A DNA stretch of 64,000 bases. It comes from Psammoneis japonica. Taxonomy: Eukaryota. The notes below the pieces were generated by a model. That model searched no databases. It was not told where the DNA came from and saw nothing but the letters and a program-made list of their open reading frames with translations. The DNA is taken from NCBI GenBank assembly GCA_008632985.1, contig QPGO01000127.1:124001-188000 (forward strand). Reading direction: 5' to 3'. This document shows positions 4,551 through 50,999 of the stretch, piece by piece. A program made the translations under genes and the position numbers. How positions within the stretch are numbered: the stretch's first letter is position 1; each line of letters begins with the position of its first letter.

Positions 4551-4989
4551 CGCGGAGGTGACTTTTGCGATACGATCACTTTTGTAACGAACCGAGAAAC
4601 TGGCTTCCCAGCATGAACAACGCGGGAAAAAATGTGAAAATCGATCGCCAACACGTGGTGTTGGTTGCGACACAAACAACGAGCAAAAAGTGAGCGTTGC
4701 TTGGCGAGTGGCGATGGACGCCAGCTGCAATATGCTTTATATAAGATATATGATATACCATTCTTATTCTCTTTAGATTAGTATACAAACATAAATGGCA
4801 CTATTACAAAATTCATTACTACATAATACAACTCAATCAGTATCACAAATGTTGGAAAACAATTAGGCGGAGTCTCTTCATGAAAATCTTAGAAGCTAAT
4901 ATGTTCATATACTAAAACCCCACTCTTTTTACGAGTAGAAGGTGGAGTATGATACATGTATTTATACTCAAAAGTAATTATATGAACAT

Positions 4990-7900
4990 AGTTCTCTGCT
5001 TGTTTCGCGGTTCAGGCAGGATCCGACACACACTCTCCACTGTCATTTCGCGCCGACGCGTGTCGCTCGCTCCACTCAACACTCAACAAAAGCACCTGGA
5101 ATGATTCATGTGTGACAATTGTGGACCACTGTTGTGAATTTGATTTGTTTGGTGATGCATCCTTGCAGTTGGGAGTCAATTGTGCATCTCATCCCATTTT
5201 TTGGTTTTTGGGCAGCATGCTTAGAGCCACTTTGCATCGTGGTGGCGCTCGACTCCCTCAGTGCTCAACAAAAGCACCTGGAATGACTTGCGCATGACAA
5301 ATGACATTGTGGGATCATTTGGCAATGTGTCTTTGTGGCAAAGCAAGACTTGCATCTGGCCCTCGCCAAAGCGGTCACGCCAGAAAGCCCGCGGTTGTGT
5401 CGATTTTGCACACTGATGCTCTGGGCCTGCTGCTCCAGCTCTGGGTGTGCTGGCGCACAAGGGCTCGATTCCCATCACCGGCACATCATTTTTGCATTTG
5501 GTGCAATGAACTCCTTCAAAATCAGTTTTTCTTAAAATCAAAGGGTGAGTGCACACAAAACTTTTTTTTTGTGCACACTCACCTTTTGATTTTCGAAATG
5601 ATCAAATTTGAAGGAGTTTGGTGCTGTGCCAAACCGCACAGAAAATCAGCCTCTCACATGATGAAAAGCTCGTCACCTGGGGCTGGAACAGGCCTCTGCC
5701 ACTTGGAACTCAACAACAACTGGGATGGCTTCCACATGTTTGTTTGGTCCATTTCACATCATGTTGGTTTGTTTGGTCATGCAAAAATTTTGTTCGGCAA
5801 AACAAAAAGTGTGCGATTGAAGGCAGCAGCATGCGGCTGGGTTGCTGCGCCAGTCTGCAGCAGCTCTTTTGCATGCAACAACTTTGAAAGGCTGTGAAAA
5901 TCTTCCAAACAAACCAAATGACTGTCATTGAGAAATGTGCTCACCACAGCTGTGATGTTCAGTGGCAAATTTGTGTTTGTGTTGAAGGTGGGATTTGGAG
6001 GGTTGCATTGCACCCCGCACTCTGCCCGAGTGATCATGCAGGATTGTGACACATCCCCCAGCAAATGGAGTCAAGTGTGCTGCATGCTCCTGGCACACAG
6101 CAGCAAGACTCATCATCAAACAAACACATGATCATCTGGACAACATGCTGGGGGGGCTTCTCTGGACAGCAGCTGTTCAAAGAATCTTGTGCAGAATTTG
6201 TGCTGAAACAGTCTTTCAATCAAGCAGTGACACAGGATTCTGGTTGAATTCAGTGAACCCTGGACAGAGTTTGTGCAGCACATGTCTTTCACTTTGTGTG
6301 CCATGGCTGGCAGCCCAGCAAGACCGCGCAGATCCCATGTGCTTGAAGCACACTGCAGCAGCAGGAGAGCATTGCACACCACAGGAGAAGCATGGCAGAT
6401 TTCCCCAGTGGAGTGGCTCAATGACTTGGGCACTCCTTTTCTCAGAGAAAGGCCATGTGCAACATCCAGCTGCTTGCAAGAGTCAACGCATTGCAGTGAC
6501 GTGTTGCAGCCTTTAAATGTCACAAAGGTTGTGACAAAAACAACCTTTTGTCTGCATGCAGGCTGCATTGTGAATTCACAGTGGAGTGGCTCATTGCGTG
6601 ACCATCAGGCAGACAAAAGGTTGTGACAAAAATGACCTTTTGTCTGCATGCATGCTGCACATGTGCCCCCCCAGCCCTCCTGGTGTGTGGGCAGGTGGGG
6701 CTGCATGTGAGATGTTGGGCCTGCAGAATTCTGCATGTGAGCTCCACAGCAAAAGTGCCAGGCAATGAACACATGGATGATCGCTGACAGAAAAAAGCCA
6801 TTTCTTTGTGAATGAATGGGCTCCTCTCCACAATCAGATGTTGCAAGTTGTGCAAAGCAAAATCTTTCAGAACATGGGCAGCTGGCGCTTGTCTTTTGCC
6901 ACAAAGAAAACAGCCTGCTCTGCTGTTGCACATGCCATCTTGAGGGGCAAGAAAGGACAGCCCGGCCCCCAGCACATGACAAAGCCAAAAATGTGCTTGT
7001 GGAGACAATGACAAGCCACGCGCATGCAAAAACAAAGCTGGCAGTTTGTGAACAAAGCATGGTGGGTTGTCAGCTTTGGGCAGCTGCAGCAACCTGCAAC
7101 CTGGCAAGAATCATGCATTCATTTTCCACTGCCAAAGGTGGTGTGTGAGCTCTTTCAGCAGATTTGTCAATGTCAGGGGTTGCTGATCACAGGGGGGTGG
7201 GACAGCAAAAAAGAAAACAACACCTGGAGCAGGTGGAAAAGGAGAGAAAAGAGCCAAAGCTCACAAGGGGAGCAGGGAGCAGCGTCGTTGAAGCAGATAC
7301 AAAAAAAACAACCCCCCACTCACACAGGGGGGGGGGGGGCACAGAGACCACTGTTTCTCATTCGTTTCTGATCTGCACTGAAGGGACTGGAACACATCAG
7401 CAATGACCACCAAAATTGGCGTCAAATTTGCCACAGCATTGTTTTCAGTGGTGGGTGCTGCTTGTTGTCTTTTTGTTCAGCACAAATGGACAGGCTTGTG
7501 AATGACATCAGTGACTTTCAAGCACAAAGTTTTTGCACCCTTTTCTTGTGAAATTTGGTCCCCCATTTTAAAAGAAACCAATGTGCAAATGATGCCATTG
7601 AACCCAACATGTCTCAGCCAGTCTCAGCAGGCATTGCAGTGCAATGGAAGTCCATTTTTGGTGACCTTGTGCATCTGATTTCTTCAGGCAAGGTGTTGCA
7701 ACATGCAAAATCCTGTGAATGCAACAGGTCCATTTTGGCAAGAAGCATGCAACATTTTGCCTTTTTCTTCATGCAATCCATTGACACTGCTTCTGCAATC
7801 ACAAAGTTGAAAAAAGTTTTCAAAATGCAAACACGTGCAGAAACAGCCATTGAGGTGCTGGGTTGTTGGCCTCAGTTGAAACATTCAGTCATGCAGCCCT

Positions 7901-9985
7901 AACTTCAAAGTCAATCGTTGGTGTTCACAGTTGGTCTGCTGAGTCCAAGCTTCTTGGCCATGTGTGTGACACATGTGCACATGGTGACTGGCCACCAATG
8001 CATCACAGACCAAACCACAAGTTTCAATCAGCCTCAACAACATTCAACAATGTTTCACAAGGCCACAACAATCCAAGCAAAAGTCCCAACACCACTCAAC
8101 CAGTGAAGACAATGTTGGAAAACAACTGGGCAGAATCAAGACATTGACAGCAGCGCTGGAAAACAAAAACCAGGTGCAGTCTCTTTGTGCAAGCACATGC
8201 CACACACAAACACAGGACATTTTTTTACATTTGGTGGGCAGCGCAAGACAGAATCTGCACCCTTGTTCTTGTCCACACAGTGAAAAATGCGCACTGTCAA
8301 AAACCCCAGATGTGATGGAGGGCAGAAAGAAACAAAACATTTTGACCTTTCAAGAAAAGTGAAGGAGGGAAGGTGTGAGGAGCAAAGAGGGAAAACCTTG
8401 CCACACTGGGGTGGGTGGCAGGAGTCTCAGCAGCTGGGCTGTGCACCTAAATTTTGGTTTGCTCTTTGTCCAACTTCTCAGCACTTTTTTCAACTGGCCC
8501 ATGCTTGACTCTGAGAAAATCCTCATGCTCCTGATTTTGGGCCAGTTGCTTGGAGAGGATGCTGGGGAGGGGGGCAGTTCTTGAGGCCTGAAAAAAAGGA
8601 AACAACCAAAGGTGTCAGATGTCAGCAGCAAGCTGTGTGAAGAAAAAATTTTCAGAGCACAGGCAGTTGACTCTTTTGCCACAAAGAAAACTGCCACCTC
8701 TGCCACTCTGCACATGCAGCTTGCACCACATTTTGGGGGCAAGAAAAGACAATCCCTGGCAATTGATGACAAGGACAAAAATGTGCAGGGACAATGATGA
8801 GCCACATGCTTGCAAAAACAAAGCAGGAGGTTCATGCATTCATGCACAAAGTTTGGCAAGGCATCAGCTTTGAGCAGCAATGGTCTGGCAGCAAGAACCA
8901 TCCGTTCTCATTTAGATCTTTCAGCACATTTGCCAATGCCAGGTTGCTGATGAGCATCTCAACAGCGTCCTTCAGAAAAAAGGAAAACAGAGATGAAAGA
9001 GATGTGGCTCATTGGAAGCAGTTTCTGCAGAGCGCAGCGCATCATCAAGCCACACAAGACTTTGAGTGTGCAGCAACATGGTGGCAGCTGCACAAACATG
9101 ATTGAAAAAAACTTGCAAAAATGCATGCCACTCTGGCAAAAGCCACTCAATCATCTTGTCATCATTTAAAAGCGTCAACAAGCTCAGCCTCTGCCACGCC
9201 ATCTGTCTGGAGTCATTGTTGAGGAGCCTGTGCTTTGCTTGATTGCAGACATCCCCCCAAAGAAGAGCCCAGTGTGAGTGCACCAACTGCCACAGACCAG
9301 CTGTCTTTCTGACAATGACATTTCTCTTGGTGCTTTCATCAGAAACCTGACTCTCTCATTGTTTGCAGCTCTGGCAATGAATGAGCTCGACCTCTCTGCT
9401 CATGCTTCTGTTTGCCTGGCATCATTGTCAGGGCACCCGCCGACAACCCTTTTGACCGTGGGTCTCCCAAGGAACTGGTCAAGCTTTCCAAATGTGAGTG
9501 CCAGTTGCCACAGTTTGCAGCACAAACCTGGCTCCCCCGGCAAGTGTTGCAGCAAGAGCTGCTCTTCGTCTCTGTGCCCTGGCCTTTGCACAGCACACCT
9601 CATCGCCTCATCGAGCATCAGAGATTGGTGGAAAGCCAGCATCTCATTGGAAACAATTGCCATTGCTGGGCAACAGGTCATGGCCAGTTGTGGGGTCTTT
9701 GCCAAACAAACTTGTTCGAGGCTGTGATGTGCACTCTGCCCTGCTTCCCATGCTGAAGAAACATGGTGTGTGGTGGGCGGGCTCATCGCTTTGCCCCGTG
9801 AGCCCCCCTTTCTCTCCTGCTGCTCTGTGTGCTCCAACTGCCTCCATCAATCCTGTGAAGAAATGGCCCACTTCTAGGGTTGCTGTGCATGTGTTCACCA
9901 GCGATGGCGCATGCACTCGCGCCTGTGAGCCATCTGGCGCATGGCGCGCGGGGACCTGCCCGTCAACGCAACCGCCATCGGCCAT
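4990..9985. other. TpA/CpG-depleted, TpG/CpA-rich decayed domain A
   Basis: Only a handful of TA dinucleotides in ~5 kb. Six-frame ORFs here almost lack Tyr and are Cys/His/Gln/Met-rich. Contains internal degenerate direct repeats. Confidence 0.9.
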
Positions 9986-10126
9986 CTATCGACTGACGCC
10001 ATTGTTGTTCGGTTGTGCGGTTGGTCGTATGAACATTGATTAGGTCTAATTCTGCGTTGTGTTGGTTGATCAAAAACAATAACAGTGTCGTCTTTTCACT
10101 TCTTGTTGTGTTTTGCTAAGCTCAAG

Positions 10127-12869
10127 ATGCTTGTGTTTCAATGTTTGATTGCGTTGAGCACATTTCGAGCTGTACGCGGTTTCGCATACGCACCAAACTT
10201 TATCACGAAAATCATTGAACAAGACACTGGAATTGAACCGATTGGACTGTTGCAAGTCGAGGAGGAGACGGAAAAAATCAATGGTGTGGCAGAAGACATA
10301 AAGTTACATCGCCAGTGACAACCAGATTTCCCCCCGAACCCAATGGCTACTTACATTTGGGCCACGCCAAGGCGGTATCTTTTAATTTTGCAGTCGCACG
10401 CATGTTTGGAGGCACTTGCAACATGCGTCTTGACGATACGAATCCCAGTAAGGAAGGACAAGAATATGTAGATTCCATCTTGGAAGATGTGCGATGGATT
10501 CAGTCGGGTTTGTACGACGGAGATGCACCTTGGTCAGGATCGGTTCGGCAAACTTCCGACAATTTTGATTTGATTTATGATTGCGCTGTTGCTCTCATTA
10601 AGCAAGGCGATGCCTATGTTGATTCGCTTTCTGCGGAGGAAATGAGAGAGTACCGGGGAACTCTTACTGAACCTGGTAAAGATAGTCCTTATCGAAGTCG
10701 TAGTGTGGAAGAGAACCTTGATCTCTTTGCACGGGTAAGTTGGTGTCGTTTTTCGTAATACGTGTTAGTATGGCGCGCTTCTCTGCTCACTCTGATATGA
10801 TATTGTAATAATCATGTCATCCTCTTCTTTGCAGATGAAAGCAGGAGAATTTTCAGAGGGTGAATACATTTTGAGAGCAAAAATCGACATGGCCTCTCCG
10901 AACATTAACATGCGGGATCCTGCGCTGTTTCGCATCAAGCACGAGTCTCATCAGAGTACGGGCGACGAGTGGTGCATTTACCCCATGTATGACTTTAGTC
11001 ATCCCATTTCAGATGCTGTAGAAGGAATTACTCACTCACTGTGTACTCTGGAATTCGAGGATCATCGTCCATTTTATGATTGGACCGTGGAGAAACTGAA
11101 ATCTGCTGGTCTCCTGTCGGCCAATCCTCAACAAATTGAATTCAGTCGCCTGAATGTCAAGTAAGGATATTGATATCGCGAATGTGGAGTTTCGCCACTT
11201 GATTTAAAGTGCTTCTTACACACGTGTGCGTTTGCTTTGTAGGAACACGGTCTTGTCCAAGCGAAAACTGATTCAGTTAGTGGAGGATAAGCACGTGAGT
11301 GGTTGGGACGATCCACGCATGCCCACCTTGTCCGGGATGCGGCGAAGGGGTATTCCTCCAGCCGCGCTTCGGCTATTTTGTGAGAGAATGGGTATCAGTA
11401 AGTCAGACTCGAACATTGATTACAAGGTGCTTGAGGAGTGTGTAAGAGAGGAAATGGACGAAGTTTGCGCTCGTGCCTTTTGTATTTTGAAACCCCTCAA
11501 GGTGACCATTCAAAACTGGGGTGGCTCCACTCTCGAGGACTTTGATGTACCACGTCATCCAAAGAAGGAGGAAATGGGCGAAAGAACGATTCCTTTTGGG
11601 AAGCACCTGTATATAGAACGTAGCGATTTCTTCGATACGGAGGGTCCGGAAGGTGAAGCTACTGGCAAGGCGCCACCTAGAGGTTTCAAACGGCTTCTTC
11701 CTGGAGGACAGGTTAGGCTCAAATATGCATATGTCATTAGTTGCGATGAAGTCGTGAGAGATCCAAAAACCAATGAGCCGACAGAGTTGGTCTGCACCGT
11801 CTATCCTGAAACACGAGCGGGCGTGACGCCCGAAGGAATGAAACGAGTCAAGGGAATTATTCAGTGGGTGGAAGCTAGCTCTGGCATCAAGTGCAAAGTC
11901 AACCAATACGACAGACTATTCCTTACCGAGGAACCGGGAAAAGAAAGTGGAGACTACATCAAGGATATAAATCCCAACTCGCTAGAAGTTTTGGAAGGGG
12001 TGGTCGTCGAACCAAGTGTTGCCATGGATGCGCTCTCCATTCTTGCCGACATTCGTCAACAGGAAGAAACTGGAGTCGAAGGAGAAAAGATTTACCCCTC
12101 TCAGTTGGCCTATCAATTCGAACGCAGTGGGTACTTTGCATTGGATCCAGCTTCGACGGACATTGACAATCTGGTCTTTAATCGCGTGGTCACACTACGA
12201 GACACCTGGGGTATGGATAAAAGCAACGCTGGTCAGTCGCAACGAAAGCGAGGCGATGGTAAAAAGCAGCCGCAACAGAGAAAAAGGGGTGGCGGCGGAG
12301 GAGGAGGTAACAATGCCGTTGTGGAAGACATTCGCCGCCCAGCCCTTCGAGCAGCCACGATTTTGGAAGCTGGTCCCCATCCGGAAGCAGATAGTCTTAT
12401 TGTGTGTAAAGTGGATTGCGGCGACGTCTCTGAGGAAACAAAAGAACCCGAACCTCGAACTGTGGTGGCAGGCCTTGCTGGTAAAATTCCTTTCGACGAC
12501 TTGGTTGGAAGTAAAGTTGTTTGCGTCACCAACCTCAAGCCTGCGAAGATGCGTGGAATAGAGAGCACGGCAATGCTCCTGGCGGCGTCCGATGGCCAGG
12601 AAGGTGACAACGAAAAGGTGGAACTCCTGTCCGTGCCTGATGCTGTCCCGAACGGAGAACTTGTGTCGTTTGAGGGCAAGGAAGCGAGCGAACCTGATCC
12701 CATGATGAAGAGCAAAGGCGCCGTCAAGGCATGGGAACGAGCCAAGTCAGGACTCCAAGCAAATGCTGAAGGGGTGGCGACGTATGTGCAAGACGGGAAA
12801 GATTACCCAATGATTACTAGCGCTGGCCCAGTGAAGACGACGTCGCTGGTCAATGCTGACATTCAATGA
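10127..12869 (+). CDS. glnS: Glutaminyl-tRNA synthetase with N-terminal targeting peptide and C-terminal tRNA-binding OB-fold (Trbp111/EMAPII-like)
   Basis: [28 protein letters not shown] (HIGH), [16 protein letters not shown], then [30 protein letters not shown]. Introns 10735-10834 and 11161-11242. One frameshift near 10275-10305. Confidence 0.93.
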
Positions 12870-12968
12870 CGAGCGATGCGACTACAAAGTTAAACAGCAG
12901 AGTTAATCAGAAGCTACTAGAAGAGGAATTGTAACTCTTATACCGCCTTTGCAACTACCGCCTCAACT

Positions 12969-15584
12969 TTAGTGCACAAACTTGTGGTTACTGCTGTCAC
13001 GGGATAGTTCGTTTTGGTTCACGCTTTCCAAAAAGTCTGCGTTGCTCTTATCCTTTGGGACAACAGCATCAAAACAGTCGCGTTCCAGGTATGTCTTGAA
13101 CTCTAAACCCAAGTAATCAAACACGTCCTTCTCGGTCTCCGCCTCGAGGATGAGCTTGTCGGTGGGACGGGGAATATTTACAATGTTGGTGTTTCGAAAC
13201 AGTCCGTGGTCATTCAGCGACATTCCCTTTACTTTTCTGGTGTAGAGACGCATTGACCTGTTAAAATGTCCATTTCCTTTCGTGTTCAGAAGCACCATAG
13301 AAATGCATTAGATATCGCGTTATGGACTGCGAAACAAAAACGGAGACACCAAGACACATACCGATAAAGTACAGACTCGCAAACACTCGTTCACGGTAGG
13401 GATAGAACTTGATGTCGATACGTCTGCGTTTGCCGGGCACGACAGGAGAGCAAAATACACCCATGTATGAGGAAGAAGAGCCATATCCCATTGCCACTGC
13501 TTCGCTCGATTCATAGTCCTGGCTGCCATCGGTTGTATCCTCAGACTCGTCGAGGCCAGACAATCGCGTCAAGTGATGATAAATGTGCCCACGTTTCCTC
13601 AATCGCTCGGCTAGTTCGCTAATAGCTCCCCGCGGTGTGGTGGCGACAAAGTCGGGATGAGTAATGAGAATGTCAATGTCACCACACGAAACACTGCCTC
13701 GTCGATAGCTCCCCATGAGTTCCACAACGGCCTTGGGGAAGCGTTCCAGACACGCCTCTCGAACAATAGCTGCAATCGCTTCGACTTCCTTCCGCGTCAT
13801 TTTTTCTCGAAAGTCTTCATAACATTCGAGACCGACCAACTGGTTGCGGGTCAAGGTCGTCAGAGTACCCGATGACACTCCGGCACGAACCTGATCAATG
13901 CTCATAAAGCCCGCGTTCAGCAGCTCGCTTGCCTGGTGTTATAACGACGCGAATAGTGCATCCCATTTTGAGTGGTGTGAGATTGGTATCAAGAATGCAG
14001 TGCTCAACAGTTAAACTCACCCGTTTCGGTCCAACATCATATATATGTGTCAATTGGTCCATGGCGATACGGTCAGGATCTTTTTCAAACTCGATAACAC
14101 GCTGGCACTCGCCCGTTTCCAAGTATTCTCGAATCTTTTGTATAGTGGAAGGTCCAAATCCGTTAATGGCTTGCAATCGTTCCAACACGTCCTCGTCGTT
14201 TGTCACATTAAAGTCAAGGTTGCGCAGTCGACCAGCTACCCTTGTAAATGTGTATGCCCTCCATTCGTCTTGTGACTGCAAGGGACAATCTTGGTGGAGT
14301 TTGGCAAGCTTTGCAAAGAGATTGGATAATTCCATGTTTCTAAAGACGAGACGAGTATGAAGAGCATTGAGTGAGACTTATGCAAGAGTACCCAGAGTCA
14401 ACCATTGCTAAGGCATACCTTTGTTTGGGATTGCCATTTGACCCCTCGTTGGCGGTTTCGGCTGCCGGCTTTTTTGCCTCTGGCGGAGCCTGTTCAGCTT
14501 GCTTCTGTCGCCCGTTGGCAGGACAATTTTCCTTTTCAACTTTTCGTTTCTACAATATACAAGTAACAATGTTAGCCACTCCGCAGGCATATATACCAAA
14601 CGGTACTTTGCATACAGTTACCTTATTGTTTGCTGTAGTGGAAAATCCCAGTCCGTTCCACACCTGCGCAAAGGTTGGATCCTCGAGCGTGAGGCCTCGT
14701 GCTTTTGCCACCCAGTCTGGTTTTACAAGTTCAATCTCGTGCTTGTCGACAAATCCAGTCAATTCTCCCACGGTATCAAACTTGCAATGCTTGGCCAATG
14801 CTGGTGGAGGCACGCCAGATTCCACGACAATGTGTGTCACGCCTTTTGCAAGATCTTGAACAACAGTTGCGCCCTTGGATTTTGCAAACTGAGTCAAGCA
14901 ACCAATCCGAGTCTCTGACATGCTGGGTCCCAACGCTACAAAGAATAAGCAAAAGCCCTTTGCTTTTTTGTCTTCTATAACAAGAGACTCTTGCGATGAT
15001 TCGGCAGTCAAATCAACCGTATCTGGAATTTTCTTTTGCGGAGCAACGGCCGCTTTAGTTTTCTTTGCCACCGGTGCGTCAGCCGTCGGCTGAACTTCAC
15101 GCTTTTTCAATGCTTGTTCACTCTTTAACACCACTAATTCAAATTCCATTTTTCCAGATATCTGTAATTCTGCTGCACCAAGCGTTAGTATGGACCCCAC
15201 CTTGACTGGTACGGGTCCTAACCACTCGCCGCTACCTTGCGGAGGCGCTTTCTGCCCGTCGATTCTCGTTAGAAAACGGGCATTCACGCCCCTCACACTC
15301 ACGTATCCAACAACATCATCCCCATCCTTTGTATTCTTTGGTTGAGCATACGTAAATTTGACCATTTCACGAGAGAGTTTAAAGCCCCAGGCTTCCACGG
15401 GGCTGCACTTATTGCATTTCTGCTTGGGATTGCAATTGCAGGCGATTCGCATGGATTTCAAAAACTCGCGTCGTCCCAGAATCGTATTATTCTTCTCTAA
15501 ACAAATAACTGAAGCTTGATTCGTAGCATTAGCACGACGTGTAGGGAGCCAACCGTACTTAATGATGGTTGGCGATTCTGTCAT
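12969..15584 (-). CDS. POLL: X-family DNA polymerase (lambda-like) with BRCT and a putative FHA-like N-terminal domain, 5 exons
   Basis: BRCT-like (GVTHIVV..LVKPDWV), HhH GFGPSTIQKIREYLETG, MGSYRRG..CGDIDILIT, RRIDIK, YFIGNGHFNRSMR, TEKDVFDYLGL. In-frame GT-AG introns 14621-14550, 14418-14340, 14020-13933, 13361-13277. Confidence 0.9.
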
Positions 15585-15832
15585 GGTCACCCTATTTGTT
15601 TCGCTGTCTCATCATCAACTTTGAAACTCTCAACGCGATTTTGATTTGCGATCCAAGACAGTCTGACCATCTGTCCCATCGATTTCATTCTTTGCCCACA
15701 TCATCGTCCTTCTCTATCTCGCTCCCACGAAAGCTTGGCCTCCTGCTCTACTCTCTGCTCGTAGTGCATGGCGACAATCTCCACTCTCTAGTGGTAGCTA
15801 GAGTTGCTCGAGTAGAGGGCCCTCTCTGCTAG

Positions 15833-16895
15833 AGAGGACTTTGCATGGCAGGTGGCGGCAGGGCAGTTGAGACGCCACAGAAGGCAGTGGAGTGTTGTGT
15901 GATGCAGCATTGTGGCAAGGTTGCAACTGTTGTGGAGACCTTGCAAGGTCAATGGAGGCACTTGTTTGCATGCCGCCAATGGTTTCAGCACTGACCCTGT
16001 GAGGGCAAAGATGCATTTTATGTCCCCGAAGGTGGCGGAATCCGGGTTCTGGATTTTTGACAGAAACGCCATCGGGGACATTTTTCATGACCCCTTGGGT
16101 GCCAGGATGACGAAACGAGCATTTGTGCCCACGGGCAAAAAGCACCCTGCCAGGCGGAAGGCACCCGGAAAACAGTGCCCTGTTGGGCACTTTGCTTCTT
16201 TGCAGGGTGTCCGGCACGTGATGAACGCCCACAACATGCGCTGCAATCCTGCGAGCTCTGGCAGCTCTTTTGCAGCAACTCCCTCCAACCCAAGTTTTCA
16301 CATCAAGAAATCACACAAGCAACCATGAGCCATGAGCCACTCTCCCACCTGCTCCCACCCCTTCCAGCCACAAGACAATGCCTGCTTGCAGCACAGAAGA
16401 GTTGCTTGCATTGCACAGCAAAGAAGACGTTGACATTTTTGGCCTGACGGCTTCTCAAAATGCGCCTGCTGCTGGCGCAAGTGATGAGAGGCTGCTGTCG
16501 TCAACAAGGCAACCGACCGGCCATCAGGTGGCAAAAAACGTTTGTGTTTCAGTTTCCTGGCATCTTTGAGAAGGCAGCCGGTGAGCACATTTCTGCTTGG
16601 ATTTGCCCTTCTTCACATTGTTTTGATCAAAATCGAGCTCCATCATGCATTCTCAAATTGTTGGATGATCTGGCACTCTTCAAGATGAGCTGCCGGAAGG
16701 AGCACTCAGCACTTCTGTTGCTCATAAATTGCTTGTGTTGAGTGCCAACAAAATGGGTCATCCAAGGACAAAGCATGGCGTGACTGCTGCAACGAATCCG
16801 TGAGCTCCAAGAATGATGCCATCAAGTTGGGAGCGGTGATGGGGGTGATGGAGAAAACATCATTTTGCAGTTTAGATGGAGACGACTGACAAGCA
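15833..16895. other. TpA-depleted domain B (CpG largely retained)
   Basis: One TA seen between 15833 and 16724, while dozens of CG remain. No credible CDS. Confidence 0.85.
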
Positions 16896-17567: not shown

Positions 17568-19298
17568 ATGAAGTATTCAGCTCTGACTGTTTTTGGATTG
17601 CTCTCTGCAGCAACCATTGGGTTTGTCGCATGGGACAAAACTCGTTCCCACGAGTTCAAGATGACCAAGATGTCACCTCCGGAAGGACCAGGAGACGTTT
17701 CAAACACCCTCAATCTTGGTGCACATGAGCCGTGCTTCATCTGTGGAACAACAGATGGGGTTGTGGGTAACAAGGATGCAATGGTTTCGGCGCCTTCCTT
17801 TCTGCGCGGCATAGATGGCGGCAAGCATCATGGCGTTACTTGTGAACGCTACGACAACATGGGTGTGACCGGTAACATCGTCCCAGAGTTGTGTAACGAT
17901 CCTTTGCACAAAGCCTACATCGACGTACAATGCGAGTGTATGGCAAAGAAGAACGACGCGGACGCTGCGACGCCACCGGAAGGTGGTGTTCGAGAAGACG
18001 GTGGAGGGGAATACTTCCAAGATGCCAACCTCAAGCGCCTAGGCCTTCGGGTACACAAGCGAGCTCGAGATGGGGCAATTGGTCTCCAGTTGGCCGATGG
18101 CCGACCCATCACTCCCGACATTCTTGAAAAGATGCGCAACAGAATCAAGACCGGGGAGGGACGCAAGCTTGGTGACAAATCTGCAATTGTGATAGACAAT
18201 GGTTCAGGCCTTATTAAGGCCGGCTTTGCTGGCGACGATGCTCCCAGAGCAGTCTTTCCGTCAATTGTAGGCCGTCCCAAGCACCCAGGCGTGATGGTAG
18301 GGATGGGACAAAAGGATGCTTATGTTGGTGATGAAGCCTTTGCGAAACGTAGCATACTGACCATCAAACATCCTATCGAACATGGCATCGTGACCAATTG
18401 GGACGACATGGAAAAAATTTGGCATCACACGTACTACAACGAACTCCGTGTAGCTCCTGAAGAACATCCCGTGTTACTCACCGAAGCCCCTCTCAATCCG
18501 AAGGCAAATAGGGAGAAAATGACACAAATCATGTTTGAAACCTTCAATGCCCCACAATTCTATGTGTCAATCGCAGCCGTGCTCAGTCTATATGCGACCG
18601 GAAGAACCACAGGGATTGTTCTCGATGCTGGTGACGGTGTTACCCACGTTGTTCCAATTTATGAAGGCTATGTGCTTCCTCATGCTGTGAACAGGCTAGA
18701 CCTTGCAGGAAGAGACGTCACAGACTTTCTACGAACGATCCTGTCAGAACGCGGTTACTCATTCACAACTTCGGCTGAAAAAGAGATTGTCCGTGACATC
18801 AAGGAAAAATGTTGCTTCGTGGCTATCCACTATGATGACGAGATGCTAATGGCGTCCGTACGGAAACACGAACACGATCAGAACTACGAACTACCTGATG
18901 GTCAAGTCATTACTATCGGCGCCGAACGATTCCGTGCACCAGAAATGCTGTTCAAACCTCGTTTGATAGGTTCAGAGCAAAAAGGGATTCACAGGCTGGT
19001 GCATGATACGATTATGAAGTGTGATTCTGACACTTGGAAGGAATTGTATGGCAACATTGTGATGGCTGGCGGAAGCACCATGTTTGAAGGCATTGCAGAA
19101 AGGTTACAAAAAGAAGTGTATTACCTTGCTCCTGATGAAAGTGTGGTAGTCAAAGTAATTGCTCGTCCTGATCGAAAGTATTTGGCGTGGATTGGGGGCT
19201 CAATCCTTGCCAATCCAGAAGACTTTGAGGACAGGTGGATCACCAAGGACGAATACGACCAAGCGGGCCCATCAATTGTTCACAGAAAGTGCACTTAG
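17568..19298 (+). CDS. ACT: Actin-like protein with a 201-aa N-terminal extension (signal peptide, Cys-rich domain, RKL site)
   Basis: Single 576-aa ORF. Residues 202-576 are actin ([86 protein letters not shown]). N-terminus [22 protein letters not shown]. Confidence 0.9.
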
Positions 19299-22200
19299 CT
19301 TCATAGATTCCATGTTCAAGTTAGTTTTGACCCTTGTCGCCTACATTAGGGCTGTATCTATGTGCTCCTAGAGATGATTTGAAATGCACACCGTTGAGAA
19401 AATCTTGAGCAATTCCGCGTTCTAGATGAGACATTTTGGATGTCCAGTGCACTGGCTTGCTGGGCAAGAAGTGGTGAAGAGCAGGGCAAATGCAATGAGC
19501 TTGGTCATTTTTGGAGAGATTGGAGAGTGCTTTGTTGGATTGCAGATGGTGATTTTGTGAGAGGGGCAAGAGATGCTGTGATGTGATTTGAAACAATCTG
19601 TGCGCAGTTGTTCCACATTACTTTTGGTCACTGTGCACAATTGAGGATCATGGTTCGCATGCACAGCGCCAGTGCATCGCGCCTTCAAGATTGCTGTGAG
19701 GTGGCAGATGGCACTGTCAGCTTGTTGCACTCCTGCTGTTATTGTTTCAGGCCAGTCAGGATGTCTCCTGCATGCACAGTCAGATTGAAGAGGGTTTGCA
19801 TTCATCAAGACTGCCCCATTGACACACAGGAACAGTGGCAAGCTGCCTTGTCATTGTGGCTGAGCAGCCTGCCTCATCTGCCTTTGCCCAGCTTCACACA
19901 GCTCATGCCAGCCACAATGAGTGACTGCACCATGACACCCAACAGCAGAAAACAAGTCTTGTCTTGATGATGATGCTCCTCCCCTCTCATCTGTGTGTGC
20001 AGAGTGTGGAGGCTGTGGAGCACATTGGTGCTGGCCTGTGCTTTGTCCTCTTTCTGCTTGCTTGAATCTTTTGCTTTCAGGTGCACCCAAGCCTGCTGGT
20101 GCTCTGCACTTTCAGGCTAAAGCCCAGAGAACAGGGTCCATCAAAATTGAGAACATGCACTCCTCCTTGATTGGCCAACAGCCTCATGGCACTCAGCGCG
20201 ATGATCATGCTTCTAGATGCAATGTGCACATGCATTTGATGGGATGTTTGGGTGCTTTCTTGTCAGCCTTGGTGGTCAACGCTGTCTGTTGTTTGCCACT
20301 CCATTGGCACACAGTGTCTCTGCATCTCTCAGCACTTTGAAAAGCAGGCATGATTGGCTTCTTTGCCAAATTGGAAAGCTGGCACTGTTCATCACAGCAG
20401 CCCATACAAAGCCAAGCTGACCTTTGCACATTTTCAGTCAGCAATGTTCTTGATTTCCACATTTGACACTTTGCACTTGTCATTGAGCACGTTGAAAATT
20501 TTTCTTGGTGCTGCAGCACCAAATGCAGCCATTGGTTGTTCACACTCTTCAATGGAGTGGGTCCCCGGCACAGCTGGGACAAAAAATTGAGAAAATCAAA
20601 ATCCAGCGCAGTTGCTTTGAGTTGGAGGAGGATTCATCGGAGGTGTGCCTGTCTCATCCTGGGGTTGATGTGCATGACGAGGGGGGTGAGGGGGTGACAC
20701 ATCATCACACTTTGCGTTGGTGGGTTCTTTGCAGCATGGCTCTTTTTGCTTGCATTTGAAAGCCAACTCCAGGTTTCCTTGACTGCTTGGTTTGGTTTTG
20801 CCCATTTGGGGATTCCCCAAAATGGCAAGGGCAAGGGGGAATTGCCTTGCCCTTTTGGGGAACACCCAGGAAATGAGGGCAATTTGGCGGGAAGGAAAGG
20901 CTGAAAGGGGTCAGGGGAAGGATCAAAAAATGAGTGCCGCGCGGCAATTCCCATCTTGTTTTACATGGGCGGGTGTGCTGTTTGTCACATCATCTGGCCA
21001 GCCAGAGCCAGCCATGGTCTGCCGCCAATGACCATGACAGATGCATTGACAAATCAACACAAAGCATCCCCTTGTGGTGCAACAAGGGAAGAACAACTTT
21101 GCCATTCAATCATGCACATTGACATTGCTCACAAGGTGTCTGCAAAAGTGGCAGCCATGCTCTGATGGGAGGGGCTCCAGTCCTCTTTGGAAGTGGTGCC
21201 GCACAAAGCTGTCGAGTTCCTGCACAGCCTGTTCTGTGAGTTGTGGGTGTGGCCACCTTCCACAGCTCTTCACTTTGCTTGTTTGATTGACTGTTCCTCA
21301 GACATGCTTCAAATGGTGAGCTCATTTTGACCACAAAGAAGCAGCTTCAAATTGGCGATCTGTTTTCTGTGTGGATTGTGCGCAACATTCCAGCATCTCT
21401 GATGTCACACAGGGAACATTCAATCTCCTAAAATGATCCTTTGCAAACTCAAACTGGACTGACAACAAGATCATCTCATCACCCATGAGCTGCAGCACTG
21501 TCTTGCAACCAAAGCAGCTCTTTGCAAAGTTGATTTTTGAGCTGATTTCAGCTCTCAAACCAAGAGCATTCAAAACATTTTTGTGCTGCTGAGCTGCTGT
21601 TGACTGTCATGATCATGAGCTCCTTTCCATCTCTAAGACAGTGCTGCAATGATGTCAGCGGGGCACTCAAATGTTTTGCACTTTGTTGCGGAATCTTCTG
21701 TTTGTTCTCAAATTGAGCTGCCCACAAGACATCTCAATCCATGCAAGACAAACAAGTGCCAGGCCGTCAGATGTTGTGATCTTGCCTTTTGGTGGAGACC
21801 GTGGTGGCAGCAAGCACACACAGCTTGCTTGTTTGAGCTCCCACCAACAGGAAAGATGGAAACTCAGCAATTTGTTCAATTCTCTTTGGCAATGATTGAA
21901 AACAGATCTGAGTGTCAACACAAGATGCAGCAATGTCCATCCAAAACAAAGACTTCTCCAAGAGCTTCATGGTCTCATCCAACCATGCCCCAGATGACTG
22001 GAGCATGGTGTTTGTCAACAATGACACCCTGGTGAGGAATCAAGTGAAAGAGAAGCAAATTGCTGTTCAGCCAGTCGTTGGTCATTTGTGACAAAATTGC
22101 AAGGTGAAAAAGCAACAAACAAGTCACACCTGCTTTGGATTTTTGCCTTTTGTTGATGTCATTGATTGTCAAGATTGTGGCCAAAGAAGATGCAATGTCT

Positions 22201-22325
22201 CAAAAAATGTGTGAACCAAGAAGAGGGCAACAAGCAATGTGCTGCAGGTTTCATGACAATTGATGTGGTGTCAGCAGCTCACAACAGCTGTGAACTGATG
22301 AATGCCACCATCATTGAAAGACATT

Positions 22326-22983
22326 GTTGGGGATGGCAGTGGAGCCTGGAGTTGTGCAGATGCAGTGAGAGGTTCAAAACCTCTGGAAGATGGCCCAACA
22401 TCTTACATCTTCTGTCATTGGCACAACATCTTTAGGCAATGGAGTTGGGAATGTCCACCATGCAGGAGATCACAAAGATGTCAAAGACCAAACTTCTGGA
22501 AGTGGATCAACCACAAAAGAGCAAGGAGATCACTCCTCTTGTTCCTTTGTAGAAACCCAAAAGTGATTGAAAAATTGCTTGGGAGTTTCAGTCTGCTGCT
22601 TCTGTCATGGACTTTTGCTTCATGGGCAGATGAGTTGGAAGTGAGTGGACGACATCCTGATCCAATGTTTTGTCCTGTCCTTTGCACATGACTCCATCTG
22701 CAGATGAGCTGAGATGCGAGAACTGAGCCAACTGCACCAAATCCAGATGCATGATCTCCAACAAGCCAATGAGGATCAAGCTCTGAACTAGATGGAACCA
22801 ACAGAGAGAGCAGAGAGGCAAGTTGCCAAGATGTGCCCAGGTGACTGGCAATCAATTTTGTCTTGCAACAAGCAGGAATTGCTCGTGGGAGGCTTGGATT
22901 GATCCCCCAAGCAGTCCACAGACCCACCCAGGTCATCCATGAAAGTGCAGCCCTGCTTGTTGGTGTCTGGCAAGCCACATCCA
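22326..22983 (+). repeat. ~660-bp degenerate direct repeat, copy 1 (copy 2 at ~27011-27683)
   Basis: Shared blocks include catgcaggagatcacaaagat and gagtttcagtctgctgcttctgtcatggacttttgcttcatgggcaga. Confidence 0.9.
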
Positions 22984-23052
22984 GAAGGGGTTGCCAAATG
23001 GATGCAATTGCCATGACAGACCACAGACTGCACTGCACAACAAAAACCATGC

Positions 23053-23317
23053 TCCACCCTGTTCAAACTCTCAGCAGGCAAAGAAACATTTCATGAACAC
23101 TGTTGCCACTCTGGATGACATCCCTGTGGCCCATGCACAAAATCTGTGTGTGGCCAGTCCAGTGCTGAAAAGGCCCTGTGGAAATCCACCCTGTTCAAAC
23201 TCTCAGCAGGCAAAGAAACATTTCATGAATGCTGTTGCCACTCTGGATGACATCCCTGCAGCCCATGCACAAAATCTTGTGTGTGGCCAGTCCAGTGCTG
23301 AAAAGGCCCTGTGGGAA
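23053..23317 (+). repeat. 132-bp tandem duplication
   Basis: Units start at 23053 and 23185 (tccaccctgttcaaactctcagcaggcaaagaaacatttcatgaa...). Confidence 0.95.
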
Positions 23318-25236
23318 CCATCATGTCCAACCTGGGTGGCGGATGAGACCAAACATGGCACAATGACTGGCCAAGCAAGGTGCGAGAGAGCACAAGGAAT
23401 GTGGTTCATGTCATCACAACCCAAGACAGTCTCTGAAGAATCACAGCAATTTCAAAAATGTGTCATTTGGAGACATCTGATCCCCAATGTTTTAGAAAGA
23501 CATTTGTGAAATCAGCACCAAGGCACAGAGAACAGATGGCTGATGGATGGGGCACACACAAGTGGATGAATCGGCAAAGCCAGCCCATCCTCAGTTTTTT
23601 GCATTTGAGGTTTGTTGTGCTGGTTGTGTGTGGAAGCCTTGTGGACAGTGCAGCCAAATCCAAGTCTCCCTCTGCTTTTTTCTTTTTCCCCCCAGCCCAC
23701 CCCTTCAACCTGACAAAGTGCACAGAGGGCTCAGGACAGATCTGCAGTGGTGGTCCTGATGTGGTCCAAAAACCAGGCACAGTCAAAAGCACCCTTCTTC
23801 CCAGTTTTGCAGTCATTGCTCTCATGGACACAAGCAGCAAGGGTGAGGCCACATTGCCCCATGATGACATTGAAAAAGGCAAGAAGGTCTTCATCAAGCT
23901 GGCGCAATTCTTTGGTGACATGGGTCTTCACCAGCTCCTCTGGCTCATGTTGGCGCAGACAGTTGCCGGCATTGTCAATGGCTTGCACTCCTGCTTTCTC
24001 TTCTGCTGATGGTTTTGTGCCAAGGGCTTCCTTGGCATGGTGTGGTGTTGGTGCCTGTGGGCACTTGCACTTGGGGTTGACAAACATGCCCTTGAAGAGA
24101 GAACGCGTGTGTCATTCGGGTGTGTGTTCTTTGCCAGTGAACTCTTCAAGCTTGAGAGGATGGCCCTAAACTGGTTGGGGTTGGATGACAAACCTTGTTG
24201 CACGCGTTGATTGTCATTCAGTGCATTTTGTTGGTTCCTTTGATTCTGTCCACCTTGATTTTGGCAACCCTGTCCTTGGCTCCCATTGTTGCCTGGACAA
24301 ACGGGTGGGCTGTTGGTTGTCCTGCCATGGCATTGTCACTGGCAGGTGGGGGTTGAGCACTGTTGGCACTCATTCTCTGTGTGGTGCATTCCACATTCCT
24401 GGGATTGCAGCAGATGGGATCATTTGTGGGGCATTGCCCTGCTTGAGTGTCACACATGATGACCACCCTGGTGGCCATGAAACCTGCAACAGCGCCAGCA
24501 CTGCCAGCTGTGATGTGGGTTCATTTGAACCTGCTGACTCTGTCACCCCCTGGGAGACCCTTGTGCATGTTGCAGTCCTGCCAGGTTGCCCATGTTGGTC
24601 CAGTGCCTCCAGAGGAGTCAAGGGAGTCTGTGAGCATTGCCAGTCATTCAGCAAGTGCAATGTTCAGATGGTGAGCGCTTTAAGCTCTTTGGACAGTGCC
24701 GCCATCTCAGAGTTGTTCCGCATCCAGAGTTTGTGCTTTCTTACTTCGGCGGTTCTTCAAAATTGATTCCAAAATGAAAACAAGTTGATTTCTTTTGCGT
24801 GACTGTCACACGGCGCGTTCAGCTCCATACCTTTCAGTCAGAAGGAAGAGTAAACAACAATCAGCTGTCCATCTTAATTTGTTACGCAATAGAATGAGAC
24901 GAACCCATGGTCATCATCTCATTCGATACGATTGTTCTTTGGGCATGAGGTCGACGTGGTCCTCGTCTGAGCCGTCCAGCTCTATCAGTTAGCCTAAGGT
25001 ACTTCTCCGCTTACGGTGTCTCGGTAAGCCAGTCTACAGCGGCCAAGTCCAGTACTTTTGGGAGAATGTCATTGAAAGGTCAATGTAATCATGTAATCTA
25101 TGTACGGCGGTAACCCGTTCTCTCACTACTCGATGGTGCATTCGTAAGTTGCTCATTCATGCATTCAATCAAGATGCTCCATAAAGTGTTTCTTAATAGT
25201 TGAACTACTACTATGCATGCCTATCGATACTTCTTG

Positions 25237-26385: not shown

Positions 26386-26764
26386 AGCGTCCGATCAAAA
26401 ATGGTAGATATGGGAAAACGAGATCAGCCTTTTATTCACTTGTTTGGTTCGTTCCAACTACTTAGGTCGACCACAATCACAATTACATTAGATGCGGTCG
26501 AAAAAGCAACAATCAGCCTTTCAAAATATGCAAAATCAACACCAATTGGCATCGGCGAGAGCATCAGAAGAGGGGTATCTCGTATCTCGCGACAAGGCAC
26601 TGGACTCAAGAAAGAGCTTTTTCGACTCGGACTTGATGAGCGGAATGTAATCTGTTTGGACTGTTGTCCCGACAGAAAAACAAACTTGCTTAAATGCACA
26701 CTCACCGGCGTCACAACGGCATTACGCCAAGATCTCACTGATGGGAAAGCTCTGCCGGCATGTA

Positions 26765-28728
26765 GACTGACCGCTCTGCGCTGCACGTCCCAGGCGGGAT
26801 CGGCTCCCACCTCCGACAGACCAAGAGTGGCGATGCCGGCCCGAAGTTGTGCAGTGTCCTCCTGGATGACGACATTGCGCTGCGACACAAATTTCCACTT
26901 GTGGTTGCTCCAGGAAGCCCCTCCAAGGTGGGTTGTTCCGTGGGTTCAGAAAATTGAGGATGATTCCAAGCCTGCCTGGCGATGAGGAAGATGCCTCACC
27001 ACAGGAGTGTGTTGAGGATGGCAGTGGAACCCAGAGTTGTGCAGATGCAGTGAGCGGTTTAGAGCATCTGGAAGATGGCCAAACAACATCTTCCGTCATT
27101 GGCACACCATCTTCTGGCAACAGAGTCGGGAATGTCCGCCATGCAGGAGATCACAAAGATCTCAAAGACCAAATTTCTAGAAGCAGATCAACCACAAAAG
27201 AGCAAGGAGATCACTCCTCTCGTTCCTTTGCAGAGACCCAAAAGCAATTGAAAAATTGCTTGAGAGTTTCAGTCTGCTGCTTCTGTCATGGACTTTTGCT
27301 TCATGGGCAGAGTTGGAAGTGAGCAGACATTCTGTTCCAATGTTTCACTGCCATCCTGTCCTTTGCACATGACTCCATCTGCAGACGAGCTGAGATGTGA
27401 GAACTGAGCCAACTGCAAATCCAGATGCATGATCTCCAAGCCAATGATGATTGAGCTCTGAACCAGATCATCTCCACCTCGTCCACCGACAGAGCCAACA
27501 GAGAGAGCAGAGAGGCAAGTTGCCAAGATGTGCCCAGGTGACTGGCAATCAACATTGTCTTGCAACAAGTCAGAGTTGCTCATGGGAGGCTCAGATTGAT
27601 CCCCTGGCCAAGCAGTCCACAGACCTGCCCAGGTCATCATGAAAGTGCAGCCCTGCTTGTCAGCATCTTGCAAGCCACATCCAGGTCAAATTTTTCTGGA
27701 GCTTTCCAGTGTGTGTGCTTGTTGTGCCAAAGCAAAGTTGGCAATGGGCCCAAGAACTTTGTCCCATCATGTGTTGCAAAATGGAGCAACTGTGCTCACA
27801 CAAAATTGTGCTCATCTCAGCAACTGTGAATGGGCTTGCAGTCACCCAGAGCTGACTGCAAGCACACTGGTTGCCAGCCTTTTCCAGAAAGGCACCACAG
27901 CTTGTTTGCTGCAAAAGGATGATTTTGGCAAAAATCAACAACTTTCCTGTTGTGGTGGCAACTTCACAAAATCTGACAATTGGAGGCCAAAGCACAAGCT
28001 TGCAACCCTGGATGAACAGCTCAGTCTTAATGGCACAAGCATCAGCAGGTAATTTGTTCTCCCCAAGATCATCACACCAGGGGCAGCTGGCTTCAACCAA
28101 AGTCACAACAGCACGCAGATGAGCTCTGGAGGAGGATCCCTGCCATTGCAGATGACACATGTGCCAAGGGAGTGCAAGCCAGCATTGAAGGTTTTGGCAC
28201 TCACAAAAATGGCACAGCGCACATCTGCCTCATGTTTTGGTTTGACACTCTTCACTGTGGTGGTGTGTCAACCACACCTGTCATGTGTGAGTGGATGACC
28301 AGCAAGCCAGGGCCACATGCTGTGTTGATGACAGCCACTGAGTCCATGGCCAGTGCCAGGTCAATTTCCATCAACAGAGAAGAGCCATGTGGATGCTCAC
28401 AGTCCATTGATCAGCACCAGGACTGAGACCAGTTTTGTCAGTTTGGAGGAGTTGAGTGTGAGATTGAGGTTGGATTTTGAGCAGAGTGCCATCAAAAACA
28501 CCCTCCTTGAGCCAAGCACGTCAAAGGAGGTGAGCATGTCATGTCCTGACCATCACTCATCTTCTGGCAATTGGTTCCTTTGTCAGTGGATCATGGGGCA
28601 GAAGTCTGACTGTGCCAGCCCAGTTTTGTGATGGCCACCAACCTGTGTCGTCTGCACTGCCGCCTGTCAGATGCTGCCTTGTTGCACTTTGGGGCATTGT
28701 GCCGATGCCGAGTTCCAGAGGTGCTCGC
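26765..28728. other. TpA/CpG-depleted decayed domain D
   Basis: TA nearly absent. CG survives only at the edges. Contains repeat copy 2 and most of the VMO-I pseudogene. Confidence 0.88.
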
Positions 28729-28910
28729 ATAATTTCTGCGCCTCACCTGTTGGTGGGCTTCTAACTAGGAAACCTACAAGCAGGAACTACAGGATTCGAT
28801 TTGAGTGCAAGGGAGACAGATCGAAAGCAACCTCAAGATGGTGGCAAGAACTTTTTGTTGAAGATGGGTCAATACTACTTTGTGTCTCTGGCACTGAAAA
28901 ATCACAACTG
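28170..28910 (+). pseudogene. Decayed 3' copy (including 3' flank) of the VMO-I gene at 49497-50702
   Basis: Colinear with ~50110-50857, e.g. tcttctggcaattggttcctttgtcagtgg versus tcttctggtaattggttcctttggcagtgg, and agcaggaactac in both. Has indels and stops. Confidence 0.9.
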
Positions 28911-37374: not shown

Positions 37375-37732
37375 GAGACACAAATAGATATTCTCGTTTG
37401 TACTTCTGACAAGGACGACTCTTGCGCAGCAGATCTCTCATAACATCGTTTCTCTCGCAGTCTCTTACGGTACCACTTCTTCCGAATCGCCAACAGCATG
37501 ATGTGCTTGTTTCAGTCTGTTCTCCGCGGTCATTATTGTGCCTCAATTTGTTTTTTAAGCCCACCATGCAAATGACCCAAAAACTATGTCCGTCCACTAT
37601 GATATTTTGAATACAAGTACCACACAAGGTACCATACATTTATCTCCTCATTTTTTTTTCCAGCGTAACTGTAGCATAGAAAGTCACAACCCAAAGTAGT
37701 TATTGCTAAACCAGGCATGAGCATGAAGGGAC

Positions 37733-41191: not shown

Positions 41192-41479
41192 GATCATATG
41201 AGAGTTGCGGGCGAGCACTGGTGCACTCTGAGGAAATAACATTTGTCCGTGCATCCTCCATTTCAGCAGGTAGACAATGACGCTACGTGACAAAAATGCT
41301 CTCTCTTAGAGGGAAGCCCTGAAGCGGACTTTGGTAATATAGTGGGTGCTGTTCGGGTAAACGCATTATTACTGCGAGAATTCGTGACTCGAATCTATCA
41401 CTGCTAGCTCTCTTAGACAGGGCCCCATCGATAGTAACTCTACTCTACTCTTTAGATAGTAGCCAGCTACTAACTAGCT

Positions 41480-50702: not shown

Positions 50703-50999
50703 CAGGAACTACCGGTGGAACAGAGTGATATTAGTTGAGAGAAATGACGAATCGAAAACAGCCACAATATAGTAGCAAGACGATTTATTGTTCAAGATGG
50801 TTCAACGTTACTTTTTCTGTGTCTGCGTAGCGCCTTTGGTAGTGAAGAATCACAACTTCCTCTCTACTTATAGTAGTTTCTCCTGCAACTACCCATCTGT
50901 TACCATATGTCATTCTCCCGCAAACTATCAGTCTCATGATCAGAAACTAGTAACTGCGAGGAAACCCTGGGCCTCGTTATCTTCTGTCTTATGAACAGT

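Follow-up and report, generated by a model that had tools for sequence, protein, structure and literature searches.

Nested footprints of TpA erasure and CpG decay in five domains of a diatom contig

RIP, which acts in Neurospora and other ascomycetes, is a transition hypermutation of duplicated DNA; it occurs in sharp domains, with some leakage into the flanks. It kills transposons and gene copies, makes TpA from CpA and mutates both copies. Deamination of 5-methylcytosine causes the CpG decay of methylated repeats; it turns CG into TG or CA and cannot remove TA. ADAR-type A-to-I editing acts on double-stranded RNA and gives A-to-G changes on both strands, with a preference for U or T on the 5′ side and for UAG sites.

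Transposon methylation in diatoms is treated in PMC9998398. A DNA mutator aimed at TpA has so far been described in a single 2026 preprint, in an unrelated alga (10.64898/2026.01.13.699255). In the accessible part of that text, Mettrop et al. (bioRxiv 10.64898/2026.01.13.699255) reported that integrated NCLDV and virophage DNA of Bigelowiella natans is hypermutated specifically at TpA. In mutation-accumulation lines, two integrated viral regions mutate ~1000× faster than the rest of the genome; of the 231 mutations that arose in the hypermutable regions, 230 were A-to-G or T-to-C changes, each of them at TpA. The cut-offs given are 0.43 or below for Rho_TpA and 1.52 or above for Rho_CpA+TpG; by term search, the accessible text holds no word beginning with 'CpG'. 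Full-text searches of the literature gave no account of diatom TpA erasure or of how it relates to CpG decay, the B. natans preprint being the only relevant source. What is new here is the nested relation of TA erasure to CpG decay, which refines a barely described phenomenon and is not its discovery.

Five TA-erased domains in a gene-dense window

The window, that is, the whole stretch of 64 kb that we analysed, is gene-dense eukaryotic DNA with a GC content of ~0.47 and with long ORFs that have few introns. By Pfam, its ORFs include actin-like, subtilase, VOMI-domain, glutamyl/glutaminyl-tRNA-synthetase-like, cyclophilin/FKBP and 'helicase-associated' domain proteins. For one orphan protein, the closest Atlas cluster is most frequent in Bacillariophyta (score 0.97), a lead that agrees with a diatom. 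All counts, pairs and borders reported below come from this one window, which has 10 domain borders. Domain limits were set from the positions of TA, giving five domains, A to E; the TA o/e values are already corrected for local A + T content. Inside the five domains, TA o/e is 0.02–0.04, compared to about 0.58–0.59 outside, and CG o/e is 0.15–0.47, compared to about 0.94–0.95 outside. CA and TG o/e are 1.6–1.96 in the domains and ~1.2 outside. With the domain interiors pooled (13,606 bp), TA o/e is 0.04 and CG o/e is 0.14; in the ten pooled edge zones (2,502 bp), the corresponding values are 0.05 and 0.68. The domains, their parents and their halos are listed below; a halo is the zone between the TA border and the CG border, where TA is gone and 50–70% of the CG is left.

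Domain A, 4990-9986: TA o/e 0.03, CG o/e 0.24, CA/TG o/e ~1.8; very high-copy repeat near 6034-6700
Left halo of A (A_left), 4990-5479: 490 bp, 1 TA, 22 CG (o/e 0.66)
Right halo of A (A_right), 9902-9986: 85 bp, GC 0.71, 12 CG; alone too short for a significant absence of TA
Domain B, 15831-16872: TA-erased island of 1,042 bp, 2 TA, about half of the CG kept
Core of B, 16253-16427: CG-free and TA-free, 175 bp; 0 CG, with 9.9 expected at the outside level
Domain C, 19424-24827: TA o/e 0.04, CG o/e 0.15; no left halo
Right halo of C (C_right), 24676-24827: small
Domain D, 26764-28729: CG-keeping edge zones at 26764-26883 (to ~27055 by the limits of an earlier, sequence-only reading) and 28649-28729
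Parent of the 3′ end of D (D3), 50033-50706 (49973-50706 by the wider limits used below), plus strand: unmutated, part of the VOMI-domain ORF 49497-50702
Domain E, 41775-44473, plus strand: hypermutated tandem copy of a subtilase gene unit, collinear with 37654-41405, with ~950 bp of internal loss
Right halo of E (E_right), 44074-44473: 400 bp, 1 TA, 22 CG (o/e 0.76)
Parent of E, 37654-41405, plus strand: unmutated, with the intact 1152-aa subtilase ORF 37733-41191 and its 3′ flank

None of the 29 stop-to-stop ORFs of domains A–D has a Pfam match at E 0.01 or better. The domains hold repeated DNA, because the summed contig depth (DNA run of the same sample, baseline ~60) is far above baseline in parts of A and C, reaching 25,544 at 6034-6700 and 1,813 at 20708-21374, respectively, and is 2–4× baseline over B. 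The segments 6034-6700 and 20708-21374 are very high-copy repeat pieces, and no protein family was found for either of them.

A second run, X2, is listed as 'DNA?', yet in the region 10531-14339 its contigs skip GT..AG or CT..AC introns (10733-10834, 11160-11243, 13275-13361 and 13931-14020); it behaves like RNA or cDNA. One single X2 contig in this region spans two convergent genes. No X2 contig cover was seen over domains A and C, which is not evidence of silence. The three runs listed are all of one sample, and their descriptions mention neither bisulfite nor enzymatic-methyl sequencing.

Domain B is flanked by the start codons of two divergent ORFs, at 15584 (minus strand) and 17568 (plus strand). 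The sequence-only reading had described B as holding one TA and dozens of CG. Its stretch 15833-16724 (892 bp, GC 0.53) contains one TA, at 16019; from base composition 49.7 would be expected, and from the outside o/e 29.2 (Poisson P 6.5e-12). Its 29 CG (o/e 0.47) exceed the interior-level expectation of 8.9 (P 7.8e-8) and fall short of the outside-level expectation of 58.9 (P 1.3e-5). The counts of one TA and many CG are thus correct; however, CG in B is about half depleted and is missing altogether from the core at 16253-16427. B is only 1 kb long, so it would be nearly all halo, with a fully decayed centre of 175 bp. Blastn found no relatives of B within the window; in a search with purine/pyrimidine recoding the best score was 50 bits, which is at noise level. 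The repeat search found no terminal repeats around B.

Direction of change in duplicated DNA

Two domains contain mutated copies of genes of which the parents are in the window. Domain E was compared to its subtilase parent, and D3 (28031-28769), a mutated copy of the VOMI-domain gene part 49973-50706, was compared to its VOMI-domain parent; pair counts were taken from reliably aligned columns. The collinearity between E and its parent is clearest with both sequences recoded to purines and pyrimidines. In each pair one copy alone was mutated and the parent was spared. The downstream subtilase copy, E, is erased in both TA and CG and is full of TGA stops, and the upstream copy keeps the 1152-aa ORF.

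In E, 82 of 109 parental TA were changed to CA (47) or TG (35) and two were kept; similarly, 82 of 113 parental CG were changed to CA (48) or TG (34) and nine were kept. The same directions were found in D3, where 22 of 25 parental TA became CA (13) or TG (9) with one kept, and 26 of 35 parental CG became CA (19) or TG (7) with four kept. The loss of TA is an A:T-to-G:C change; therefore, 5-methylcytosine deamination, which is C to T, cannot yield it. The proposal of the sequence-only reading that TA loss is a separate process and not a by-product of this deamination is well supported by the two pairs. Outside TA and CG contexts, E differs from its parent at 0.212 per site for A:T-to-G:C and 0.204 per site for G:C-to-A:T, values in which the old divergence of the two lineages masks any specificity.

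Repeats shared between or within domains also differ at these doublets. The two copies of a 0.68-kb repeat in C and D (22325-22985 and 27010-27685) differ by 11 TG/CA doublets, and two more such differences are present in a 133-bp tandem repeat inside C (23053-23186 and 23185-23319). The repeat copies therefore were mutated independently, in place, after they had formed. For the C/D repeat, C has TG where D has CA in nine of the 11 doublets, from which it follows that each domain has its own strand bias. This bias agrees with the base skews, T over A and G over C in domain C, and A over T in domain D.

The domain interiors hold 34 TA, which are mostly of the form YTAR (TTAG, TTAA, CTAA and CTAG). 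Counted on both strands, 82% of the flanks 5′ to interior TA are pyrimidines, compared to 42% outside. Most of the TA remaining in E were newly made, because the parent has CA or TG at these places. Judged from these flanks, the mutator may prefer TA followed by a pyrimidine. The CG that survive in interiors and halos are enriched in GCGC, GCGG and CCGC; a G is located 5′ to them at a frequency of 0.38–0.39 in interiors and halos, compared to 0.23 outside. Since the surviving CG have the same G-rich flank bias in halos and interiors, the same CG-removing process acts in the halos.

The assembly was also compared to the contigs of the same sample. Among the differences listed (40 of 58), we excluded 19 at 22370-22504, which derive from the D paralogue; at least 11 in-domain variants are usable. 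Six of the 11 are CG versus TG/CA, and one, at 8449, is TA/TG at a remaining TA. Two of the 11, at 5294 and 16775, are CG/CA variants located in halos. The in-domain variant sites listed are 5294, 5795, 5895, 8449, 16775, 20199 and 23803. These variants hint that both processes are recent or still running.

A TA step and a CG ramp at the domain borders

Change-point fits placed the CG border inside the TA border at nine of the 10 borders, by 30 to 490 bp.

Larger offsets: A_left, 490 bp; B_right, 445 bp; B_left, 422 bp; E_right, 400 bp
Smaller offsets (up to 152 bp), within count resolution: C_right, 152 bp; D_left, 120 bp; A_right, 85 bp; D_right, 81 bp; E_left, 30 bp

For C_left, the fit put the CG border 463 bp outside the TA border, with a support interval that reaches the TA border and thus includes coincidence; the reverse halo at this place (18961-19424, low in CG and normal in TA) was taken as noise in actin-like coding sequence. 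In the metaplot of the 10 borders, TA o/e drops from 0.63–0.81 to 0.00–0.04 within the first 100 bp, whereas CG o/e falls gradually, along a ramp of 300–600 bp. The step is best seen at A_left, where the domain adjoins a TA-rich tract of 260 bp (4731-4989, 39 TA). The border at 4989/4990 is sharp; because the last TA before it is at 4989 and the next one is at 5222, the border of the mutator is sharp within a few bases next to TA-rich DNA.

We divided the window into 160 non-overlapping segments of 400 bp. Of these, 31 are low in both TA and CG, six are low in TA with a CG o/e of 0.50–0.60, 122 are normal and one is of the reverse type; this single reverse segment is borderline and straddles D_right. 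CG depletion is therefore nested within a wider TA depletion.

The sequence-only reading had reported a halo with CG present and TA absent at four places along the larger domains. Within its limits, 4990-5480 has 1 TA and 23 CG (o/e 0.69), 26765-27055 has 0 TA and 14 CG (o/e 0.57), and 44190-44470 has 0 TA and 16 CG (o/e 0.80); 9880-9985 has 0 TA and 12 CG (o/e 1.04), with 1.8 TA expected (P 0.17). In each of the four, CG is commoner than expected from the interior level (P 2e-5 to 2e-9), and the absence of TA is significant in three of them, 9880-9985 being too short. The halos are therefore real as TA-free, CG-containing zones, with 0–1 TA and 12–23 CG; they are partly decayed and not CG-intact, as 30–50% of the CG was lost. 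In the long halos CG o/e is 0.54–0.76, and halo GC is 0.52–0.71, the highest within the domains. Individually robust halos number only four or five among the 10 borders: A_left (490 bp), both flanks of B (422 and 445 bp), E_right (400 bp) and, by the wider limits given above, the 291-bp D_left. The edge zones at A_right (85 bp), D_left (120 bp), D_right (81 bp) and E_left (30 bp) are too short for a significant absence of TA on their own.

Borders were classified as 5′-facing or 3′-facing by the orientation of our own ORF-based gene models, since the contig ends give no transcript starts; for A_right, the orientation was taken from a spliced contig in which plus-strand GT..AG introns are joined back to 10531. 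At the six 5′-facing borders (A_left, A_right, B_left, B_right, D_left and E_right), CG o/e per 100 bp is 0.92, 0.30, 0.53, 0.56, 0.37 and 0.31 over the first 600 bp and ~0.2 thereafter. The first 100 bp inside each of the six borders, 600 bp in all, have a CG o/e of 0.92 and no TA. At the four 3′-facing borders (C_left, C_right, D_right and E_left), the values over the first 500 bp are 0.49, 0.23, 0.28, 0.07 and 0.04. The offsets of the two classes differ with a one-sided Mann–Whitney P of 0.019, in a post hoc comparison of ten borders classified by our own ORF-based gene models. We hypothesize that halos are wider where the 5′ end of the neighbouring gene faces the domain. Such a contrast would fit cytosine methylation being kept off promoters, with the TA mutator not being kept off.

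The sequence-only reading had suggested that TA erasure spreads further or acts faster than CpG decay. TA loss is saturated; therefore, it would take the form of a step even with a single graded targeting profile common to both processes, for which, by our estimate, a TA:CG rate ratio from roughly 5 upwards is enough. 'Reaches further' and 'acts faster' both fit the data of the window equally.

Origin of the halos and comparison with known systems

We consider it probable that two different mutational processes act on the same silent, repeat- and duplicate-derived domains and leave nested footprints. The first would be a TpA-directed A:T-to-G:C mutator, which would turn TA into TG or CA on either strand; it would be saturated across each whole domain and would stop at a border that is ~100 bp sharp or less. 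The second would be CpG decay to TpG/CpA, slower or weaker towards the domain edges and at its floor only 300–600 bp inside; it would most likely be 5-methylcytosine deamination. We infer that the CG loss is 5-methylcytosine-driven and that the two processes involve different enzymes. By analogy, the TpA mutator of B. natans, which acts alone in the accessible account, supports a separate TA process. One shared targeting profile with a faster TA reaction fits the data as well as two different domains.

It is unlikely that the halos are simply younger, as they would be if silent domains grew outward or if B were a recent insertion. Under this explanation the spatial targeting would be the same and only 'acts faster' would apply: TA erasure would be fast and enzymatic and CpG decay slow and spontaneous, so young parts would be TA-free and CG-rich. 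The TpA rate of ~1000× baseline given in the accessible text on B. natans agrees with it. So do the CG/CA variants at 5294 and 16775, and so does a 77-bp repeat inside the A_left halo, of which the two copies differ at CG versus TG/CA; decay there looks to be in progress. However, the halo of E was duplicated together with the interior of E, and only a later spreading of silencing could be the cause there. In the E halo bin (44194-44493), five of 10 parental CG were kept, compared to four of 102 inside (Fisher P 2e-4), and for parental TA the numbers are one of 19 and one of 85 (P 0.33). The alignment of the E halo is poor in parts, with one block that is unambiguous (parent 41297-41405, E 44314-44429; identical in 80 of 106 columns) in the parental 3′ flank. 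In this block TA went from eight to zero, and four of six CG were kept (P 1.8e-4 compared to the interior). As E arose from one duplication, the age of the DNA cannot cause the difference in CG between halo and interior. At the edge of D3, likewise, four of nine parental CG were kept, compared to none of 26 inside (P 2.4e-3). The D copy of the C/D repeat, which is near the edge, still has CG at five places where the deep C copy has TG or CA, and two cases are the other way. Also against a pure age effect, halo width would depend on which end of the neighbouring gene is faced, which would point to a spatial cause. The age explanation is compatible with the two-process reading and is not exclusive of it.

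A single mutator with specificity for both TA and CG is quite improbable in our view. CG would be its poorer substrate, and the halos would be the low-dose edges of one profile; examples would be a deaminase complex with the A of TpA and the C of CpG as its targets, or a biased repair that drives every YpR step to CpA/TpG. Such a mutator would account for TA and CG ending in the same products in the same domains, for the partial decay of halo CG, and for CG loss never being found without TA loss among the 400-bp segments, of which the sole reverse one is borderline. The CA:TG ratios of TA- and CG-derived sites are also indistinguishable, 47:35 and 48:34 in E (Fisher P 1.0) and 13:9 and 19:7 in D3 (P 0.37), as a single strand-asymmetric machine would give too. 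However, opposite chemistries, A-to-G and C-to-T, would be needed. In the accessible data on B. natans, the only experimental system, the TpA mutator made A-to-G or T-to-C changes in 230 of 231 cases, and in the NCLDV region the G:C-to-A:T rate is ~175× below that of A:T-to-G:C. Moreover, with a CG o/e of 0.92 and no TA in the pooled first 100 bp of the six 5′-facing borders (600 bp), a large rate ratio of the two reactions would be needed.

The high GC of the halos follows from TA erasure. At the E edge, GC is 0.466 in the parent and 0.537 in the halo copy; in the interior of E, it is 0.500 in the parent and 0.499 in the copy. The interior is unchanged because 73 A:T-to-G:C changes at TA were offset by 84 G:C-to-A:T changes at CG, and GC is raised in the halo because the A:T-to-G:C gains were not offset by C-to-T losses. 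Given the parental 0.466, the halo therefore owes its high GC to TA erasure that was not accompanied by full CG decay. Global alignment hints at CG gain in halos (T-to-C or A-to-G at TG/CA), in parts where it is mostly unreliable; the unambiguous block has only two such gains. Chance or base composition, by which halos would be GC-rich stretches with rare TA and common CG, can hardly be the cause: the halos are indeed the most GC-rich parts of the domains (0.52–0.71) and the four short ones are individually non-significant for TA, but TA o/e is 0.05 over the 2,502 pooled bases despite the A/T correction, all 55 outside 250-bp windows with GC ≥0.54 hold at least two TA (medians 7–8; 0 of 55 with fewer), and the parental sequence of the E halo had 8 TA in 109 bp at a GC of 0.466. 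The objection that higher GC alone explains the halos, which the sequence-only reading had raised against itself, is rejected for the long halos.

For the two-process reading, a more specific form may be proposed as a tentative possibility. The TpA mutator would be aimed by a methylation-independent chromatin state and would fill the whole untranscribed intergenic space, ending sharply, to the nucleotide, at most a few hundred bases from the neighbouring start codons; cytosine methylation would be a second, narrower layer, held several hundred bases off the 5′ ends of genes. If this is true, the TA footprint marks the borders of silent chromatin permanently in the sequence, and halo width records the reach of promoter protection into silent domains. 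More generally, if TA erasure can be separated from CpG decay in space or rate, the TA mutator needs no dense cytosine methylation. In that case, plain sequence, by the TA border and the CG ramp, could map the borders of silent domains and their relation to promoters, and halos and small islands such as B would be natural places for measuring each rate separately.

Compared to known systems, the changes resemble ADAR editing in being A-to-G with a 5′ T on both strands; different from them, ADAR edits RNA and not the genome. The leftover TA, which are mostly YTAR and include both TAG and TAA, are also a poor fit to the UAG preference. Like decay of 5-methylcytosine, the domains show CG changed to TG/CA, confinement to silent repeat DNA and graded loss at the domain shores; unlike it, TA was removed as well. 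RIP is similar as a transition hypermutation of duplicated DNA in sharp domains. However, RIP changes C to T at CpA and raises TpA, and here TpA is erased and CpA/TpG is enriched; RIP also mutates both copies, whereas only E was mutated here, and the parent subtilase has its 1152-aa ORF, a Peptidase_S8 match and normal TA.

Among the described systems, B. natans was compared as far as the accessible text of the preprint allows. B. natans is a chlorarachniophyte and the window is from a diatom. The targets there are viral integrations, and here they are a subtilase tandem copy, a VOMI-domain gene fragment and repeats. Erasure is near-complete in the window, compared to a Rho of 0.45 for the NCLDV region of B. 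natans; it is overlaid by CpG decay, a subject that is not treated in the accessible preprint text. In both, TA on either strand is changed to TG or CA, and the changes strike silent or foreign DNA and leave ordinary genes alone; the values found here, 0.02–0.04 for TA and 1.6–1.96 for CA/TG, fall within the B. natans cut-offs.
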